A stretch of 64,000 bases of DNA from an uncultured Rickettsiales bacterium (GCA_964416435.1 CAYQEG010000006.1:19216-83215), one strand, 5' to 3'. Counted from the first letter of the stretch, positions 1 to 58,348 are shown. A program made the numbers and translations. The notes: generated by a model from the letters alone, not told the origin.

Positions 1-1026
<1,026 letters not shown>

Positions 1027-6962: not shown

Positions 6963-8081
6963 ATGATCATCGGCGTCCCCAAGGAGATCAAGGCACAGGA
7001 GTATCGGGTCGGGCTCGTCCCCTCCGGCGTCAAGGCGCTGGTGGACCATGGCCATCGCGTGCTCGTGCAGCAAGGCGCAGGCGTCGGAGCGGGCCTCTCG
7101 GACGAGGAGTATGTACGGCAGGGGGCCGAGATCGCGCCCGACGCCACGTCCGTCTGGTCGGGCGCGGACATGGTCGTCAAGGTCAAGGAGCCGGTCCGGA
7201 ACGACGTCGAGGACGAGTACAGCCTCATGCGGCCGGGCCAGCTGCTCTACACCTACCTGCACCTGGCCCCGAACCCGACCCTCACGCGGGCGCTGCTCGA
7301 GCGCGAGGTCATCGGCGTCGCGTACGAGACGATCACCGACCCGACGGGCGGAACGCCCCTGCTCGAGCCCATGTCCGAGGTGGCCGGGCGCATGTCCGTG
7401 CAGGCCGGCGCGTCGTGCCTGGAGAAGCAGGCGGGCGGCCGCGGCGTGCTGCTCGGCGGGGTTCCCGGGGTGGAGCCTGGCGTCGTCGTGATCATCGGGG
7501 CCGGGATCGTGGGCCGGAACGCTGCGAAGATCGCGGTGGGCCTCGGCGCCGAGGTCTGGCTGCTCGACCTGAACCTGCGCATCCTGCGGTACTGCGACGA
7601 CATCTGGGGCAGCCGCGTCAAGACGCTGGCGAGCAACCAGGTCAACATCGCCAAGGCGCTGCGACGCGCCGATCTGCTGGTCGGTGCGGTCTACAACATC
7701 GGCGCCCGCACCCCGGTGCTGGTCACGCGCGACATGCTCTCCCTGATGAAGGAGGGCGCCGTGATCGTCGACGTCGCGGTCGACCAGGGCGGCTGCGTCG
7801 AGAGCACCCGGCCGACGACTCACGCCGACCCGACCTTCGTGCTCGACGGCATCGTGCACTACGGCGTCGCCAACATGCCCGGCGCGGTCTCCCGGACCAG
7901 CACCTTCGCCCTGACCAACGCGACCCTGCCGTACGCCGTGCAGCTGGCCAACCTGGGGGTCGAAGAGGCGGTCACGCGCTCCCCCGGGCTCCGCCCCGGC
8001 GTCAACGTGTACCGCGGCGCGGTGACCTACGAGCCGGTCGCGGCGAGCCTGGACATGCCGGTCCAGTCGCTGCCGTTCTGA
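6963..8081 (+). CDS. ald: alanine dehydrogenase
   Basis: [22 protein letters not shown]... with NAD-binding [24 protein letters not shown]. The full-length 372-aa family match begins at ATG 6963, in frame with track ORF 6765..8081. Confidence 0.9.
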
Positions 8082-52879: not shown

Positions 52880-53728
52880 TCAGCGTTTGTTGCGACGCCC
52901 GATCCGGCGCTCCGTGAGGCTGATCAAGGTGGAGGGTGCATCCTGGCTCGCCAGCCGCAGTGCGATGCGCTTTCGGGCGCGGTGCCCGACCCCCGCGCGG
53001 GCGGCCTCGAGGGCCAGCTCCGGCGTGTTGCTCGACTCGGACAGGTGGCCCAGGAGGACCTCCTCGACCCGACTGCGCCGCAGCGACTTCACGATGTCGG
53101 CCGCCTGCCGGTTGCTCAGGTGGCCCCACCGCCCGCCCACCCGGTCCTTGACCGAGGTCGGGTAGTCGCAGCCGCGCAGCATGTCGGTGTCGTGGTTGAA
53201 CTCCAGGAGGACCGCTCGGCAGGTCCCGAGGACCTCCATCGCCCGCCGGCTCGGCGACCCCATGTCCGTCGCGATGCCGACGCGGTCGCCGCCGACCCCG
53301 ACCGCGAAGCCGACCGGGTCGACGGTGTCGTGCGGCACGCGGAACGACTCCACCTCCAGGGCGCCGATCTTCAGCTTGTCCCCCGGCTCGAAGGTCCGGA
53401 TCTCGGTCCCCTCGTCCAGCGCCAGGCGGCCTCGCTGCACCTTCCTCATGCAGCCCTCGCTCATGTAGACGGGCACCTCGAAGGTGCGGGCGGTCACCCG
53501 CGTGCCGGCGACGTGATCTCCGTGGTCGTGGGTCAGCACGATCCCCTTGACCCGGCTCGGCGTGATGCCGAGTTTTCGGAGTCTGAGGCGGACCTGGCGA
53601 CAGCTCAGACCACAATCGACGAGAATCGCCGAGTCGTTGCAAACGACGACCGTCGCGTTGCCGCGGCTCCCCGAGCCGAGGTTCGCGAAGGAGACGGTGT
53701 TGCGGAACAGGTCCAGGTTTCGGATCAT
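52880..53728 (-). CDS. MBL-fold metallo-hydrolase
   Basis: It starts at the internal Met MIRNLDLFRNTVSFANLGSGSRGNATVV. HxHxDH motif LTHDHGDHVAG. The track's upstream 99 codons are rejected. Confidence 0.8.
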   Translation of the reverse strand: MIRNLDLFRNTVSFANLGSGSRGNATVVVCNDSAILVDCGLSCRQVRLRLRKLGITPSRVKGIVLTHDHGDHVAGTRVTARTFEVPVYMSEGCMRKVQRGRLALDEGTEIRTFEPGDKLKIGALEVESFRVPHDTVDPVGFAVGVGGDRVGIATDMGSPSRRAMEVLGTCRAVLLEFNHDTDMLRGCDYPTSVKDRVGGRWGHLSNRQAADIVKSLRRSRVEEVLLGHLSESSNTPELALEAARAGVGHRARKRIALRLASQDAPSTLISLTERRIGRRNKR

Positions 53729-53782: not shown

Positions 53783-54319
53783 GTGACGATTACGCGGTGT
53801 CCCAACTGTGAGGCCCAGGTCCTGCCCGGGGACGTGTCCTGTCGCCGCTGCAAGTACGACTTCATCATGGGCCGGCAGCTCGACGGTGATCCGGCGGCGC
53901 AGGAGCGCAAGCGCCGCCTCGCCGGCCTGGGCGCCGTGGTCGCCGGGATCCTGATCGTCGGCGGCATCGTGATGTCGTTCGTGATGAAGCCGCCCGAGGA
54001 AGACGCCGGGCCGGTCGACAACCATCCTTGCGCCGTCGCCTTGCGCGGTATCCAGCCCGTCATCGCGGCCGCGGCCGCGCGCGGGAACCCGATCCCGGAG
54101 TGCGAGGCGACCCCGCCCGGTCCGACGGCCTGTTGGCAGGAGGTCGACGTGCCGACGGCGGCGGTCTCGACCGAAGGGATCGAGTTGACCCTCGAGCGCA
54201 CCCGGGACGGCTTCGACATCCGCTGCCGGGCCGACATGGACGGTGACGGCGATCGCGCGCTGTACTCGGCCAACGAAGCCGTGACCGGGGTGCGGATCTC
54301 GCCGCTCGGCGTGCAGTAG
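53783..54319 (+). CDS. hypothetical zinc-ribbon plus single-TM protein
   Basis: A GTG start and strong G/C third-position bias. An N-terminal CPNC...CRRC zinc ribbon is followed by one TM helix (LAGLGAVVAGILIVGGIVMSFV) and a Cys-containing extracytoplasmic domain. Confidence 0.6.
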   Translation: MTITRCPNCEAQVLPGDVSCRRCKYDFIMGRQLDGDPAAQERKRRLAGLGAVVAGILIVGGIVMSFVMKPPEEDAGPVDNHPCAVALRGIQPVIAAAAARGNPIPECEATPPGPTACWQEVDVPTAAVSTEGIELTLERTRDGFDIRCRADMDGDGDRALYSANEAVTGVRISPLGVQ

Positions 54320-54325
54320 CTCCGG

Positions 54326-55450
54326 TCAGGCGAGCCGGCGGGCGGCCACCGTCGGCGGCACCGCCGCGGCCGGCCGACCCAGGATCCCGTCGCAGACGTC
54401 GCTGACCGCCGCGCCGATCCACGACAGCCCCCAGCCTCCCCACCCGCTCAGCGCCACGACGCGCGGGTTGCCGGGCAGCGGCCCCACGATCGGGAGGCCG
54501 TCGCACGAGGCGGTCCCGATCCCGGACCAGGCCTCGACGATCTGCGCCGCCGCAGGGTCGGCGACGTGGGCCTCCAGGAACGCCCGCTGGCGATCCAGCA
54601 CCTTGGCGCTGATCGCCTCGTCGTCCGTCACCCCGGCTTCCATCTCCGGCTGCTCGGCCCAGCGACAGCCGACGAACCCCAGCCCCCCGTCGGGACGCGG
54701 AGCCCACGCCTCGAAGCGGTGTCGGATCAGGGCTGGCCGAGCCGGGGGGAGCGCCAGCGGGGCGGTGCGCGCCCCCTGGAGGCGCACCGGGTACAGCATC
54801 GGGCCGAACCACGGGTGCACCGACGCCGAGCCGGGCCCGGCGGCCACGACCACGATCTCCGCCAGGACCTCGCGGTCGTCGACCCGCAGCCGCAGCCCGT
54901 CGGCGGTCGCGCCGCCCAGGGTCGCCCGACCGGTGAGCGACGGCGCTCCCTCGGTGAGGGCGGCGAGCAGCGCGGCCAGGTCGACCTGGCCGTCGCCGTG
55001 CACGAGCACCCCGCCGTGGAACCCGCCCGTCCCCTCGATCGGGGAGGCCACCTCCGGACCGAACCAGCGTCCGAGGAGCTCGACCGACGCCTCCCACTCC
55101 CGCCCCTCCTCGGGCCCGAGGCAGAGGCGCTCGGAGCCGTCGAACCGCGCGTCGATGGCGTGCTCCTCGCACAGGAGGCCAAGCTCGTCGATCGCCCGCG
55201 CCGACCAACGCCACAGGGCGCCCGCGCGCTCCGCTCCGAGGGCTGCGGCCAGGCGCGCGGGGCTGTCGGCGCCACCTCGAGCGGCGATCCCGAGGCTCCG
55301 GGTCGACGCCGCGGCGGGCGGGTCGGCGGAGTCGATCAGCAGAACGTCGGCGTGTGCGGCGAGCCGCGCGGCGGCCCATCGGCCGGCCAGCCCACCGCCG
55401 ACGACGGCAATGTCACAGCGGGCCGGCGCGCCGGCCCCGCCCTCACTCAG
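54326..55450 (-). CDS. FAD-dependent oxidoreductase (DAO/ThiO-like) with no canonical in-frame start codon
   Basis: The reading frame is open from the TGA at 55582-55580 down to 54326. It encodes ...LSEGGAGAPARCDIAVVGGGLAGRWAAARLA...SPIEGTGGF.... There is no ATG/GTG/TTG between the upstream stop and the GTG at 55051 chosen by the track. The candidate non-canonical starts are CTG 55450 or ATT 55411. The boundary is uncertain. Confidence 0.5.
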   Translation of the reverse strand: MSEGGAGAPARCDIAVVGGGLAGRWAAARLAAHADVLLIDSADPPAAASTRSLGIAARGGADSPARLAAALGAERAGALWRWSARAIDELGLLCEEHAIDARFDGSERLCLGPEEGREWEASVELLGRWFGPEVASPIEGTGGFHGGVLVHGDGQVDLAALLAALTEGAPSLTGRATLGGATADGLRLRVDDREVLAEIVVVAAGPGSASVHPWFGPMLYPVRLQGARTAPLALPPARPALIRHRFEAWAPRPDGGLGFVGCRWAEQPEMEAGVTDDEAISAKVLDRQRAFLEAHVADPAAAQIVEAWSGIGTASCDGLPIVGPLPGNPRVVALSGWGGWGLSWIGAAVSDVCDGILGRPAAAVPPTVAARRLA

Positions 55451-55787
55451 CGTCGGGCTCCCCGGCGTCGGGGGCGGGCTCCCCTTCGGGGGCCGGCGCC
55501 TCTTCGGGCGTGGCGGCGGGATCCGTCTCGCTCGTCTGGCCCGCGTCGATCCAGCCGAACTTGCTGGTCGCCGGCAGCTTCACGCGGAGGCGGTCCCCCT
55601 CCTTGAAGAGGACCTCCACCCGCTGGCCGCTCTCGATCGTGCCGACGGAGCCGCTGTCCGCCTCGACGAACCGGGTGGCGTCCACCTCGGCGGTGGTCCA
55701 GACAAAGTCTGCGGCGATCGCCGGGACGGCGACGATCAGGGCCGCGACGACGGCGGCGAGGATGCTCAGGAAGCGCTTCATGGTCAC
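55443..55787 (-). CDS. small secreted/membrane-anchored protein with SH3b-like domain and acidic Pro-rich tail
   Basis: MTMKRFLSILAAVVAALIVAVPAIAADFVWTTAEVDATRFVEADSGSVGTIESGQRVEVLFKEGDRLRVKLPATSKFGWIDAG. Third positions are strongly G/C-biased. The start is GTG 55787 or ATG 55781. Confidence 0.65.
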   Translation of the reverse strand: MTMKRFLSILAAVVAALIVAVPAIAADFVWTTAEVDATRFVEADSGSVGTIESGQRVEVLFKEGDRLRVKLPATSKFGWIDAGQTSETDPAATPEEAPAPEGEPAPDAGEPDAE

Positions 55788-55796
55788 CTATCCGGG

Positions 55797-57545
55797 CTAC
55801 TTGATCCGGTAGCCCTCCATCTCGTTGTTGAAGATCCAGGCCACGACGTCACCGATCTTGAGGCCGACCGGCAGGTACGTCTCTCGCGAGACCGCCGCCG
55901 AGCCCTTGCGCGCGAGCTCCTGACGGGCGGTCGACATCTTGCGGAACCGCTGCTGCCAGCGGCTCATGTTGGGTGGGCGGAGGTCGATCCAGCCGCGCTG
56001 GGCCCACTTCTCGAGCGAGGGAGCGTCGACGGAGTGCGCCGTCTTGTCCCGCCCCTTGATCTCCGGGACCTTGATCACCGGCCCCCGCAGGAACCGCTCG
56101 CCGTCGGGCAGGAGCACCGGGATGCCGATGGAGATCGCCTGGCGCCCCACCTCCCGGTCGCCGATGCCCCGAGCGAGCTTGACGCCCATCTCCTCGGGCG
56201 AGATCGGCTCGCCGTCGGCGTCCTCCGCGCAGGCGAGCAGGCGGTCGCCGTAGGCCTCGCGGATGAGGTAGGCCTCGAACAGCAGCTTGCTCAGCTCCGG
56301 GGGGCCCAGCTCGCCCAGCGCGACGCTGGGCTTGCCGTGCCGATCCTTGAGCCGGGTCAGGTCCTTCATCGCCACGCCGCGCAGCTGGCCCGCGCGGTAG
56401 GACGGCGTCATCACCGCGCCGTCCAGCGCCGCGATGACGTCGTTGCCGGTGTTGCCGCCCCACAGCTCCATGACGATCCGCTGGGCGATCTCCTCCGGCG
56501 TGACGAACTCCATCTGCGCCACCGCCGAGATCGCTCCGAACTCGCCGGCGGCGAACAGCCCGTTCTCGCCCGTGTTCACGACGGCCAGCTCCAGCTCCTC
56601 CCCGGTCGCCTGGTAGCCGGCGGGATCCTCGCGGGTCGCCAGCTCGGCGAGGTCGGCGATCGCGACCTCCTCGGGGGCGTACAGCGGCCGGGGCTCCCCG
56701 CCCCGGCCGGTGATCTTGCGGACCTCGACCCCTCGGTAGCCGATCATCGCCGCGGGCTTGATCTCCTTGACGGCCGGCGCGCCGGGGGTGCGCGCGAGCA
56801 GGAACATGAGCCCGGTGTGCGCGAAGGCGACGGCGTTCTTGGCGAGCAGGGTCCGGCTCGGGCGGTCCTCGCTGTGGGTGTAGGGGATGTTGAGCCCCAT
56901 GCCGCCGGTGCCCGTGGTGCCGACCTTGATGTACATCGCGGTCTTCGCCTCGGTCGTGGCCCGGCTCAGGATGCGCACGTGGCGGATGATCTGGGGGACC
57001 GCCTGGGCGAGCAGCCCCTTCTCCAGGTCCGAGTCGAACTCCGGCACCAGCGCGCCGCCGGCGGCCAGGGACTCGTCCAGGTCGGCCCGCAGGTCCGCGG
57101 TGCTCTCGAACGTGTCCTGGTAGCTGATCCCCGTGGCGGTGTTGACGCAGTCGATGATCGCGTGGGGCTGGTGCTTCGCGATCAGCTGGGCCATGTGGTT
57201 GGAGGCGTACGCCGGCTCGAACGGCCCGAACGTGAAGTCGAGCATCTGCCGGCGGCGCTCGGGGTCGCCCAGGAGCTCGCCGCGGGACAGGAACGCGAAC
57301 TCGGCGGGCACGAACAGGTTGCCCGCCTCCGCCACCCAGGTGACCTCCGGGAACTCCGCCTTCAGCTCCGCGACCGCGGCTTCGGCCTCGTGCATGTGCA
57401 GAGAGGCGACGACGATCTTGTCGGGCTGGAGGTACCGCGCGATGCGCCGGCACGTCGCGATCCCGACGAGCCCGGCGCCGCCGAAGAGCATGAAGCTGGT
57501 GAAGACTCGGTGCACGACCGCCTCCGGGGACGAGGGGAGCGCCAT
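55797..57545 (-). CDS. large NAD(P)-binding Rossmann-fold protein of unknown function
   Basis: The N-terminus MALPSSPEAVVHRVFTSFMLFGGAGLVGIATCRRIA... has a beta-strand followed by a GGAGxxG-type loop. I recognise no specific family. An internal ATG at 57545 is preferred; the track ORF extends to 57614, which would overlap the divergent mlaE. Confidence 0.6.
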   Translation of the reverse strand: MALPSSPEAVVHRVFTSFMLFGGAGLVGIATCRRIARYLQPDKIVVASLHMHEAEAAVAELKAEFPEVTWVAEAGNLFVPAEFAFLSRGELLGDPERRRQMLDFTFGPFEPAYASNHMAQLIAKHQPHAIIDCVNTATGISYQDTFESTADLRADLDESLAAGGALVPEFDSDLEKGLLAQAVPQIIRHVRILSRATTEAKTAMYIKVGTTGTGGMGLNIPYTHSEDRPSRTLLAKNAVAFAHTGLMFLLARTPGAPAVKEIKPAAMIGYRGVEVRKITGRGGEPRPLYAPEEVAIADLAELATREDPAGYQATGEELELAVVNTGENGLFAAGEFGAISAVAQMEFVTPEEIAQRIVMELWGGNTGNDVIAALDGAVMTPSYRAGQLRGVAMKDLTRLKDRHGKPSVALGELGPPELSKLLFEAYLIREAYGDRLLACAEDADGEPISPEEMGVKLARGIGDREVGRQAISIGIPVLLPDGERFLRGPVIKVPEIKGRDKTAHSVDAPSLEKWAQRGWIDLRPPNMSRWQQRFRKMSTARQELARKGSAAVSRETYLPVGLKIGDVVAWIFNNEMEGYRIK

Positions 57546-57589
57546 ATACCCCGCCGCCCGATCCGCCGCAATCGCTTCGGTTACCCTTC

Positions 57590-58348
57590 GTGGCCGTGTC
57601 GGGTGTGCTTCCATCGCTGGGGCGGTACGGACTCTTCTGGGGTTCGATCCTCAGGAGCGTCGCCGGCGGTCGCGCCGCGCTCGCCGAGGTGCCGCAGCAC
57701 GCCTCCCGCGTCGCGTGGCGCTGCGTCATCCCGGTCACCCTGACCGCCCTCCCCTTCGGCGCCGTCATCGGGTTCCAGGGCATGGCCATCCTGGACCTCT
57801 TCACCGCTCACCGGCTGCTCAGCAGCCTCCTGTCGGTCTTCGTCATCCGCGAGCTCGCCCCGGTGATCGCGGCGGTGCTGATCGCGGCGCAGGCCGGCTC
57901 GTCGTACGCGGCCGAGCTGGGGGCGATGCGGATCAAGGAGGAGATCGACGCGACGGAGGTGATGGCCGTCGACCCGATCGGTTGGCACGTCGCGCCGCGC
58001 GTCATCGCGATGGGGCTGGTGGTGCCGGCCCTCACGATCCTCGCCGGGTGGTGCGGGATCTTCGGCGGCTGGCTCGTCGCGGTCGGCCTCGAGGGGCAGG
58101 CCCACGGGGTGTTCATGGCCCACCTGGCCGCCGACCTGACGACCTTCGACCTCTTCGCCGCGGCGCTCAAGGGGCTGGTCTACGGCCTGCTCGTCGGGTC
58201 GATCGCCTGCTGGAAGGGATACAACGCCACCGGCGGAGCCGAGGGGGTCGGCCGCGCCGTCAACGACACAGTCGTGCTCTCGGTGATGTTCATCCTGGTG
58301 GCCAACTACCTGCTCAGCTCGCTGCTGTTCTCGGGAGCGATCGCATGA
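57590..58348 (+). CDS. mlaE: MlaE/YrbE-family ABC transporter permease (first of two)
   Basis: LGRYGLFWGSILRSV...VTLTALPFGAVIGFQGMAILDLF... The GTG start is uncertain. Confidence 0.8.
   Translation: MAVSGVLPSLGRYGLFWGSILRSVAGGRAALAEVPQHASRVAWRCVIPVTLTALPFGAVIGFQGMAILDLFTAHRLLSSLLSVFVIRELAPVIAAVLIAAQAGSSYAAELGAMRIKEEIDATEVMAVDPIGWHVAPRVIAMGLVVPALTILAGWCGIFGGWLVAVGLEGQAHGVFMAHLAADLTTFDLFAAALKGLVYGLLVGSIACWKGYNATGGAEGVGRAVNDTVVLSVMFILVANYLLSSLLFSGAIA

Follow-up and report, generated by a model that had tools for sequence, protein, structure and literature searches.

A FAD-dependent oxidoreductase gene with a probable CTG start inside the end of its upstream gene in an uncultured bacterium

A FAD-dependent oxidoreductase gene on the minus strand of the window (the whole 64,000-nucleotide stretch of DNA analysed) probably is a functional gene translated from CTG 55450, with start signals that fall within the final codons of the small gene before it. 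From sequence comparison we assign this reading a probability of about 0.8, and the CTG start would represent a well-supported new example of a phenomenon that is known but rare. The gene is the last of three (Table 1), arranged as the large gene, a gap of 15 nt, the small gene, an overlap of 8 nt and the oxidoreductase gene, which are best explained as a single, tightly packed transcription unit read in one direction; a search for promoter-like or terminator-like sites inside it has found none. The host is an uncultured Myxococcota-like bacterium of a marine clade. Neighbouring genes include Mla lipid-transport and acyltransferase genes, and a distance of 44 nt separates the large gene from the divergently oriented mlaE, which starts at 57590, as had been described before.

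Table 1. Features of the three-gene unit and of the junction between its second and third gene
Feature	Position	Strand	Details
Large gene, 582-aa protein	55797..57545	(-)	ATG 57545, TAG 55799-55797; ORF reading
Small gene, 112-aa protein	55443..55781	(-)	ATG 55781; alternative GTG 55787 gives 114 aa
Shine-Dalgarno (SD)-like GGGGAG	55458..55463	(-)	ends 7 nt 5' of the CTG
Start/stop overlap octamer CTGAGTGA	55443..55450	(-)	CTG 55450-55448, proposed start; TGA 55445-55443, small-gene stop
FAD-dependent oxidoreductase gene, DAO family PF01266	54326..55450	(-)	374 aa from the CTG; TGA 54328-54326

An open frame without a canonical start

The oxidoreductase frame is open from its TGA back to the stop at 55582-55580. 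An earlier note on this DNA had stated that no in-frame ATG, GTG or TTG occurs between that stop and codon 134, and re-reading of the frame has borne this out: the first such codon is GTG 55051, which is codon 134 if CTG 55450 is taken as the first, and codon 176 if counting begins with the open frame. The continuous frame of 375 codons (374 residues and the stop, from the CTG) and the intact Rossmann motif reported there have been found as well, together with a full-length PF01266 match (E = 1.9e-36, 126.8 bits against a gathering cut-off of 27.9, profile positions 1-345 of 353). The domain begins at residue 13 from the CTG, at DIAVVGGGLAG, in which the N-terminal GxGxxG of the family appears as GGGLAG, and all FAD-binding motifs are retained. 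With the DAO family (ThiO, sarcosine oxidase, the C-terminal domain of MnmC) the protein shares the full-length domain and this glycine motif, but it reaches the cut-off of none of the NCBIfam equivalogs, has no sequence relative in the PDB at E <= 0.001, and is assigned at the family level. Its subfamily is small, with 77 matches in the protein search, and the JGI name of its orthologs is "glycine/D-amino acid oxidase-like deaminating enzyme". The public gene call of the oxidoreductase (P0121) comprises 241 aa, starting from GTG 55051, and a related truncated call (P0127) comprises 292 aa.

A scan of the whole window has shown that, among ~40 ORFs with coding-like GC3, the oxidoreductase alone has its first canonical start deep inside the gene, and the missing start is therefore more than a matter of chance. 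A genome-wide habit of CTG starts has been considered and discarded, the pattern being seen in no other coding ORF of the 64-kb window. Regarding the possible start codons, the note had admitted only CTG 55450 and ATT 55411; both are in frame, and so is an ATC far upstream, which completes the near-cognate codons 5' of the Rossmann motif. The octamer CTGAGTGA indeed combines the CTG with the out-of-frame small-gene TGA, as had been claimed. The CTG begins 5 nt 5' of this stop codon, and in the frame of the small gene its letters come from GCT, a rare Ala codon, and from the G of the next GAG. The last 20 nt of the small gene hold both the oxidoreductase start codon and its SD-like motif. A GGAG or GAGG exactly 7 nt upstream is found for 0.5% of the CTG triplets in the window, and at 5-9 nt for 6.4%; the other genes of the locus carry GGAG at 6-8 nt. 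RNA folding around the CTG has revealed no special structure (z = -0.75). As CTG is a common codon in a GC-rich genome, a single in-frame CTG says little by itself, and the case for the CTG start rests on its conservation.

The junction in related lineages

Six further lineages lack a canonical start (L001, L172, L173, L174, L175 and L176), and no in-frame ATG, GTG or TTG is located 5' of the fold-essential residues in the window, L001, L172, L173, L174 and L176. All seven lineages, the window included, have in common the junction CTGA(G/C)T followed by GA or AG, in which the CTG stands in the oxidoreductase frame and the small-gene stop falls within the eight bases (CTGACTGA in L001, CTGAGTAG in L172-L176). 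In their alignment the C, T, G and A as well as the following T are invariant, and the spacers between CTG and Rossmann motif differ by -3, 0, +21 and +24 nt, all multiples of three. In L172-L176 the CTG precedes FDVAILGGG by 4-5 codons, a normal N-terminus for the oxidoreductase family. The overlapping small-gene codon is GCT or CCT in 7/7 lineages, so that Ala and Pro alternate while the T is retained; GCT makes up 3.7% of the Ala codons and CCT 3.1% of the Pro codons, with T at 2-6% in the third position. The CTG thus appears to be conserved beyond what the overlapping coding constraint explains. A GGAG or GAGGA motif 7-8 nt 5' of the CTG has been observed in 6/7 lineages (the window, L001, L172, L173, L175 and L176), and in L174 the SD-like motif is weak. 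The non-canonical CTG start tied to the upstream stop, as proposed in the earlier note, has gained support from these six lineages through the shared overlap, the kept frame, the SD-like motif and the rare T-ending codon.

The seven CTG lineages fall inside a clade with 100% bootstrap, in which oxidoreductase identity goes down to 51-55%, so the arrangement must be old. The start site is evolutionarily labile rather than rigidly fixed, since a sister subclade of L007, L166 and L168 has replaced the CTG by a TTG that lies 29 nt within the small gene, and the only canonical start in L006 is an ATG 37 codons upstream. Other relatives of the same locus show GTGA (L009, L010, L013 and L177) or TGATTG (L014 and L016). 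The small gene is missing from L008, L009 and L011, of which L011 has, independently, a GGAG-type motif at the same 7-8 nt spacing and a CTG candidate at another position. Close relatives have been gathered via truncated gene calls, and a direct scan of metagenome contigs has yielded at least three close relatives. Proteins in the databases begin with M whatever their start codon, and a statement such as "no ortholog uses ATG" is not generalisable from them. Conversely, it had been suggested that an ortholog with ATG or GTG at the equivalent site would imply an error here; many orthologs do have a GTG or TTG nearby, but this does not turn the sequence found here into a faulty one.

Several other readings of the locus have been weighed against the CTG start. 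Relatives L010, L013 and L177 use GTGA overlaps and CTGAGTGA holds an out-of-frame GTG (55446-55444), which may suggest that a sequencing or assembly indel hides a true in-frame GTG or TTG, e.g., this GTG as a classic GTGA. Four independent metagenome assemblies from different samples agree on every base of the 300-nt junction, so that the sequencing error envisaged earlier is rejected; the GTG in question opens an out-of-frame ORF of only 35 codons and is absent from L001 and L172-L176, where the CTG is still in frame. We give this reading next to no weight. It is likewise very unlikely that the gene is a recent pseudogene whose start has been lost and which is untranslated or yields only the 241-aa fragment from GTG 55051, in spite of the lacking canonical start, the short public calls and a 1-nt frameshift in L175 (in a G-run just 3' of the Rossmann motif), which reflects either misassembly or genuine decay there. 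Compared with the closest ortholog L001, dN/dS is 0.39 for the whole gene, towards the top of the 0.24-0.47 spanned by orthologs with canonical starts, and 0.23 for the first 52 codons (the Rossmann segment, 69% amino acid identity), a stretch that in both genomes precedes every canonical start. Accordingly, purifying selection also acts 5' of the first canonical start, and the pseudogene that had been put forward as an alternative is rejected. Furthermore, the frame of 374 codons is intact in seven lineages at 51-61% amino acid identity, all FAD-binding motifs are in place, the non-canonical state spans a deep clade and hence is not recent, and FAD binding would be impossible for a fragment that lacks the Rossmann fold.

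Initiation at another near-cognate codon is most improbable. Bacteria are known to start translation at ATT in rare cases such as infC (PMC2830850), and ATT 55411 is in frame and near the glycine motif, from where translation would yield M-A-V-V-G-G-G. This codon, the second candidate of the earlier note, is not conserved, as its equivalent is GTC in most orthologs, L001 and L172-L176 among them, and ATC in L014; no SD-like motif accompanies it, the conserved R-C-D or F-D residues are encoded 5' of it, and a start just three residues before the first Gly would cut strand beta-1. Equally hard to credit is that a programmed frameshift, placed where the small gene ends, fuses the SH3 protein to the oxidoreductase, which would make a separate start unnecessary. 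No stop codon interrupts the oxidoreductase frame where it runs through the 3' part of the small gene, and the SD-like motif before the stop codon is loosely prfB-like, but there is no slippery sequence, the P-site GAG cannot re-pair with AGU, and the motif is placed 12 nt from the stop instead of about 3 nt from the shift site. Moreover, such a fusion would put a Sec signal peptide on a FAD-binding cytoplasmic fold, L008, L009 and L011 lack the small gene altogether, and a natural fusion has been seen in none of the loci.

Initiation at the CTG and documented cases

Under the preferred CTG start, the codon at 55450 would be read by initiator tRNA, and ribosomes would reach it directly via the SD-like motif, or after terminating at the TGA 5 nt downstream, or both. 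The start would presumably give a low output tied to translation of the small gene, judged from E. coli, where CTG starts reach about 1-2% of AUG (bioRxiv 10.1101/063800). Independent, SD-driven initiation explains the data as well as termination-reinitiation does, and the presence of a good SD-like motif means that coupling may be dispensable. Termination-reinitiation has been described for overlapping pairs of the ATGA and TGATG forms (PMC6728339, PMC10666635, PMC12548453), and the classic geometries studied are -4 or -1 (PMC6728339, PMC10666635). The genes described here share with these pairs the common direction and a stop and start few nt apart, whereas their overlap is -8, the start is a CTG accompanied by a good SD-like motif, and the coupling is putative. 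Bacterial CTG starts have been documented for rpsL and Deide_03051 in Deinococcus and for RepA in E. coli (PMC2830850). In common with these, the CTG is the sole possible start 5' of conserved fold-essential residues, is conserved in related genomes and has been missed by automatic annotation; here, in contrast, it belongs to a fixed 8-nt start/stop overlap within the upstream gene, and the case is known from sequence comparison in an uncultured organism.

The upstream proteins and the meaning of the locus

The two upstream genes had been described as belonging to no nameable family, which has proved incorrect for the large protein. The large protein is 100% identical to P0001 (582 aa), has >7000 homologs, and its top matches all carry PF27054, an assignment taken from precomputed Pfam annotation in which an unmarked entry means E <= 1e-5. 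All gene callers start it at ATG 57545, which replaces the 580 aa given before by 582, and the longest ORF begins at ATG 57614. Its N-terminal half contains GGAGLVG and is Rossmann/SDR-like, as had been recognised, and is followed by the PF27054 "Beta_methylindole_red_C" domain. In Foldseek searches with the AF2 model (pLDDT 73.6) SDR folds match this half only, with a TM of about 0.5; a classical SDR YxxxK is not conserved across the family, in which the invariant Tyr 142, 205, 270 and 383 lack an invariant Lys four residues on, and a PDB sequence search has returned nothing useful. The namesake of PF27054 is Ind2, the NADH-dependent beta-methylindole-3-pyruvate (3-methylindolepyruvate) ketoreductase of indolmycin biosynthesis (PMC8246080). 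The large protein shares with Ind2 the C-terminal domain and an N-terminal dinucleotide-binding fold, a likeness at the domain level. Unlike Ind2, it has no indolmycin cluster context, and its family is very widespread and occurs as a highly conserved single gene in Myxococcota-like MAGs. Synteny around the large gene is confined to a clade with >=65% identity and takes in housekeeping pur genes, so the neighbourhood is of little help for the function of the protein; relatives at 45-57% identity have different gene neighbours.

The small protein had been called SH3b-like and secreted, with 114 aa, a length that holds for the GTG start. It has a signal peptide (…VPAIA/AD), a putative SH3-fold core of ~55 aa and an acidic Pro/Glu-rich tail. 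The SH3 fold is suggested by the model, in which the core is all-beta (single-sequence AF2, core pLDDT about 80); SH3 domains or proteins containing them account for nearly all of the top 50 PDB matches, though at E about 0.03 and TM 0.65-0.7. The sequence itself misses the PF08239 SH3_3 threshold with 16.8 bits against a cut-off of 27, and below-threshold matches occur in 8/14 orthologs (best E = 3.3e-4). A periplasmic protein with signal peptide and SH3 fold is hence supported at the fold level only, as a model-based assignment.

Regarding the joint role of the three proteins, an amino-to-hydroxy conversion may tentatively be considered, in which a DAO-type amine or amino-acid oxidase would form a keto or imine product that is reduced by the Ind2-like NAD(P)H ketoreductase; confidence in this pairing, which derives only from a family name and from gene adjacency in one clade, is low. 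A wider and still less likely view holds that the ~6 codons closing the small gene, with their E-P-x-(A/P)-(E/D)-stop tail, CTG and SD-like motif, have been kept in the seven deep-clade lineages as a dual-use element. It would hold expression at a very low, strictly coupled level for the flavoenzyme, which together with the Ind2-like reductase would constitute an undescribed amino-to-hydroxy pathway specific to the marine Myxococcota-like clade and linked to the Mla and acyltransferase neighbours.

Bacterial CTG starts are rare and usually written off as pseudogenes or sequencing errors, and the present locus offers a clean, phylogenetically replicated case with several independent kinds of comparative evidence. 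Standard gene callers systematically remove the FAD-binding domain, at least eight lineages being shortened in public databases (e.g., P0121 and P0127), and the functional annotation of those MAGs is thereby corrupted. The locus also represents a natural series of start types in homologous contexts, i.e., GTGA, TGATTG, internal TTG and CTGAGTAG, which could be used to follow the evolution of start-codon strength and translational coupling, and the biochemical role of the three-gene unit may be of interest in itself.

The oxidoreductase frame and its start

The minus strand of the window has been found to carry, between 54326 and 57614, three ORFs in the same direction: a large gene, a small gene for an SH3-fold-like secreted protein, and an FAD-dependent oxidoreductase of the DAO family (see table). 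The oxidoreductase frame, which ends at TGA 54328-54326, is open as far back as the stop at 55582-55580 (translation …RCDIAVVGGGLAGRW…), and its earliest in-frame ATG, GTG or TTG is GTG 55051, codon 134 counting from CTG 55450. An earlier note had described this lack of a canonical start, and all its details have held on re-reading of the sequence, including the CTG and the small gene's stop lying together in one octamer. Pfam matches this frame with a full-length DAO domain (PF01266; E = 1.9e-36; 126.8 bits, cut-off 27.9) from residue 13 onwards, counting from the same CTG; therefore, the Rossmann beta-alpha-beta, which is essential to the fold, lies wholly upstream of the canonical starts. 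Among the ~40 window ORFs with coding-type GC3, the oxidoreductase alone has its first canonical start deep within the coding region. An ORF at the window edge (3-1007), fairly coding-like before its first canonical start, could be another mis-startable gene or a mere edge effect.

Seven lineages (the window, L001 and L172-L176) share the CTG, and in the alignment of their junctions (A3) C, T, G, A and the next T are invariant, with variable flanks. Between the CTG and the Rossmann motif the spacer comes in four lengths, with differences of -3, 0, +21 and +24 nt that are all multiples of three, as expected only for a translated sequence. The CTG uses the third base of the small gene's antepenultimate codon, which is GCT or CCT in 7/7 lineages; in these genes GCT makes up 3.7% of Ala codons and CCT 3.1% of Pro codons, and the share of third positions with T is 2-6%. 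The residue itself alternates between Ala and Pro, and the T is retained. In six of the seven, a GGAG or GAGGA ends 7-8 nt before the CTG, similar motifs (GGAG) lying 6-8 nt from the start in other genes of the locus; as background, GGAG/GAGG stands exactly 7 nt from 0.5% of the CTG triplets in the window and 5-9 nt from 6.4%. Across clades the small protein differs widely in its C-terminal tail, which is PE-rich, Gly-rich or LPPIEFNLPGND (A2, the ortholog alignment, columns 95-150; window 55443-55500). In the CTG lineages this tail always ends in E-P-x-[A/P]-[E/D]-stop, which suggests that its sequence is dictated by the initiation signals of the downstream gene. Taking the compared sequences together, CTG is the only conserved codon upstream of the essential domain that would be competent for initiation, with an SD-like partner and an 8-nt overlap with the upstream gene end. 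The preferred reading of the earlier note, initiation at a CTG linked to the stop of the preceding gene, has accordingly gained support from the seven junctions, the spacer, the codon and the SD-like motif.

Other explanations of the missing start have been weighed on the same material. Two further codons could be proposed, and both have been rejected: ATT 55411 shows no conservation, and conserved R-C-D residues stand upstream of it; the GTG within the octamer of the window does not share the oxidoreductase frame and is missing in the other CTG lineages. The earlier note had also allowed for a sequencing indel or a recent pseudogene. The error reading is rejected because the same 300-nt junction has been observed in four contigs separately assembled from different samples (L002, L003, L004 and L005). 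For the pseudogene, selection has been examined by Nei-Gojobori dN/dS between the window and L001, the closest other lineage (identity 86% for the large protein, 61% for the oxidoreductase): the large gene gives 0.17 and the oxidoreductase 0.39, oxidoreductase pairs with canonical starts ranging over 0.24-0.47. Counting from the conserved Cys-Asp, the first 52 codons, which lie upstream of every canonical start in both lineages, have a dN/dS of 0.23 and 69% identity, above the rest of the protein, which argues that this segment is translated. The pseudogene reading is rejected as well, since the oxidoreductase is intact and selection also acts upstream of its first canonical start.

Start types among related loci

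The strong conservation of the large protein's family has made it possible to fetch 165 related loci. The full neighbourhood (acyltransferase, two small genes, mlaD-F-E-E, then divergently the large gene, the small gene where present, the oxidoreductase, a Zn-ribbon membrane protein, an MBL-fold protein and purB) is retained only in the clade with a large-protein identity of at least about 65%. Within this clade the position of the oxidoreductase start is remarkably labile (see table). No small SH3-fold-like gene follows the large gene in L008, L009 and L011, and in L009 the two enzyme genes overlap directly; thus, the pair of enzymes is the constant part and the small gene can be dispensed with. 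The CTG of L011, preceded by GAGG 7 nt upstream, looks like a second CTG start, independent in position. Either the assembly of L175, a single short contig, is in error at the frameshift, or the gene is truly decaying in that lineage.

Several observations concern the surroundings. Synteny of the MBL-fold gene between the oxidoreductase and purB is conserved, and, among large-protein relatives of 45-57% identity, an unrelated MBL-fold gene stands divergently upstream in about 38-50/145 loci. Many MAGs with the Myxococcota-type locus (L006, L008, L010-L014, L019, L033, L038 and others) are titled 'uncultured Rickettsiales', 'Enterobacterales' or even 'Klebsiella pneumoniae', titles that are probably wrong.

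Features of the window and oxidoreductase starts in related loci
Locus	Position	Feature
Window	55797..57545 (-)	Large gene, 582 aa from ATG 57545
Window	55443..55781 (-)	Small gene, 112 aa
Window	54326..55450 (-)	Oxidoreductase, 374 aa from CTG 55450
Window	55450-55443	Octamer CTGAGTGA: CTG in oxidoreductase frame, TGA stop in small gene's frame
Window	53783-54319 (+)	Conserved 178-aa protein, N-terminal zinc-ribbon-like CPNC…CRRC, one hydrophobic segment; convergent with oxidoreductase, 6 nt between stops; syntenic in many relatives, no Pfam annotation
Window	52880-53728 (-)	MBL-fold protein (Lactamase_B), also matches PF23023 Anti-Pycsar_Apyc1
Window	3-1007 (-)	Edge ORF; first canonical start at codon 48, GC3 0.83 before it
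L001		No canonical start; CTGACTGA at position equivalent to window's octamer
L172, L173, L174, L176		No canonical start; junction …[G/C]CTGAGTAG…, in-frame CTG 4-5 codons before FDVAILGGG
L175 (ENA ERZ1283799 k141_1050505)	748-843	CTGAGTAG junction as in L172-L174/L176; 1-nt frameshift, one additional G in G-run directly after Rossmann motif (GGCGGGGGCTG)
L011	2980-3030	No small gene, no canonical start; CTG 7 codons before DIAILGGG, 21 nt past large gene's TAG
L009		GTG overlapping large gene's stop (GTGA, AAGTGAGC); no small gene
L008		GTG preceded by GGAGG motif
L010, L013, L177		GTGA overlap with small gene's stop
L014, L016		TGATTG
L012, L015, L017, L086		GTG or TTG few codons upstream
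L007, L166, L168		TTG 29 nt within small gene
L006 (= identical L171)	6990-7110 (L171: 4990-5110)	Sole in-frame start ATG 37 codons upstream, overlapping small gene ~105 nt; neither canonical nor near-cognate start near Rossmann motif

The partner genes and a possible pathway

With its longest possible ORF, from ATG 57614, the large gene would run over the divergent mlaE start at 57590 (+); every gene caller and every ortholog (570-573 aa) backs ATG 57545 or a later start. The 44 nt between ATG 57545 and mlaE, as the earlier note had estimated, would consequently have to hold two promoters; no sigma-70-like match has been found in this divergent region. The large protein had been described as belonging to no nameable family, which no longer stands, as it has more than 7000 homologs, the top matches all annotated as Pfam PF27054 'Beta_methylindole_red_C'. 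The family is named after Ind2, the NADH-dependent 3-methylindolepyruvate ketoreductase of indolmycin biosynthesis (PMC8246080, PMC5925218). The AF2 model of the large protein (pLDDT 73.6) matches SDR/Rossmann structures over the N-terminal half only, and YxxxK is not present as a conserved motif among the invariant columns; therefore, assignment to the classical SDRs has been rejected. One may imagine an oxidase and reductase pathway, in which DAO-type deamination would be followed by Ind2-like keto reduction. This is chemically coherent and L009 couples both enzyme genes directly, yet we consider it unlikely, its basis being family names and adjacency within only one clade.

The small protein begins with a signal peptide, followed by a conserved ~55-aa core and an acidic tail that varies. 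Its matches to SH3_3 are all below threshold; the core is all-beta in a single-sequence AF2 model, and nearly all of the top 50 PDB matches, with weak E-values, are SH3 domains or proteins that contain one.

Initiation, age and annotation

For the CTG start, the initiator tRNA would read CTG, and ribosomes might either come directly via the SD-like motif or, on terminating, re-initiate a few nucleotides back, two routes which these data cannot separate. Translational coupling at the window junction is plausible, as relatives carry the classic GTGA and TGATTG at the same place; coupling of overlapping pairs has been reviewed (PMC6728339, PMC10666635, PMC12548453). CUG initiation reaches ~1-2% of the AUG level in E. 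coli (bioRxiv 10.1101/063800), and Deinococcus CTG starts have been verified via N-terminal proteomics (PMC2830850). RNA folding around the CTG is unremarkable (z = -0.75), and no promoter-like or terminator-like sites have been found inside the unit.

In a neighbour-joining tree of the oxidoreductase (100 bootstraps), the CTG lineages and a TTG/ATG group (L006, L007, L166, L168) have formed one clade with 100% support, within which L172-L176 (100%), the window with L001 (97%) and the TTG/ATG group (100%) are recovered. The CTG overlap may be ancestral to the clade with one loss, or may have been gained twice, and it has been retained while identity dropped to 51-55% in the oxidoreductase and 65-67% in the large protein.

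Public calls of the oxidoreductase, as seen in the homolog search, are truncated to 241 aa in the window and 292 aa in L001, and several further cluster representatives are also N-terminally truncated; L172-L177 were examined as contigs fetched from behind such calls. Gene callers have likewise passed over the GTGA overlap of L177 and cut the L006/L171 protein to 312 aa. The junction does not represent a new kind of system; it adds a new, well-replicated case to a known, rare class, that of overlapping gene pairs with a conserved CTG start, and such a start has a practical consequence for annotation.
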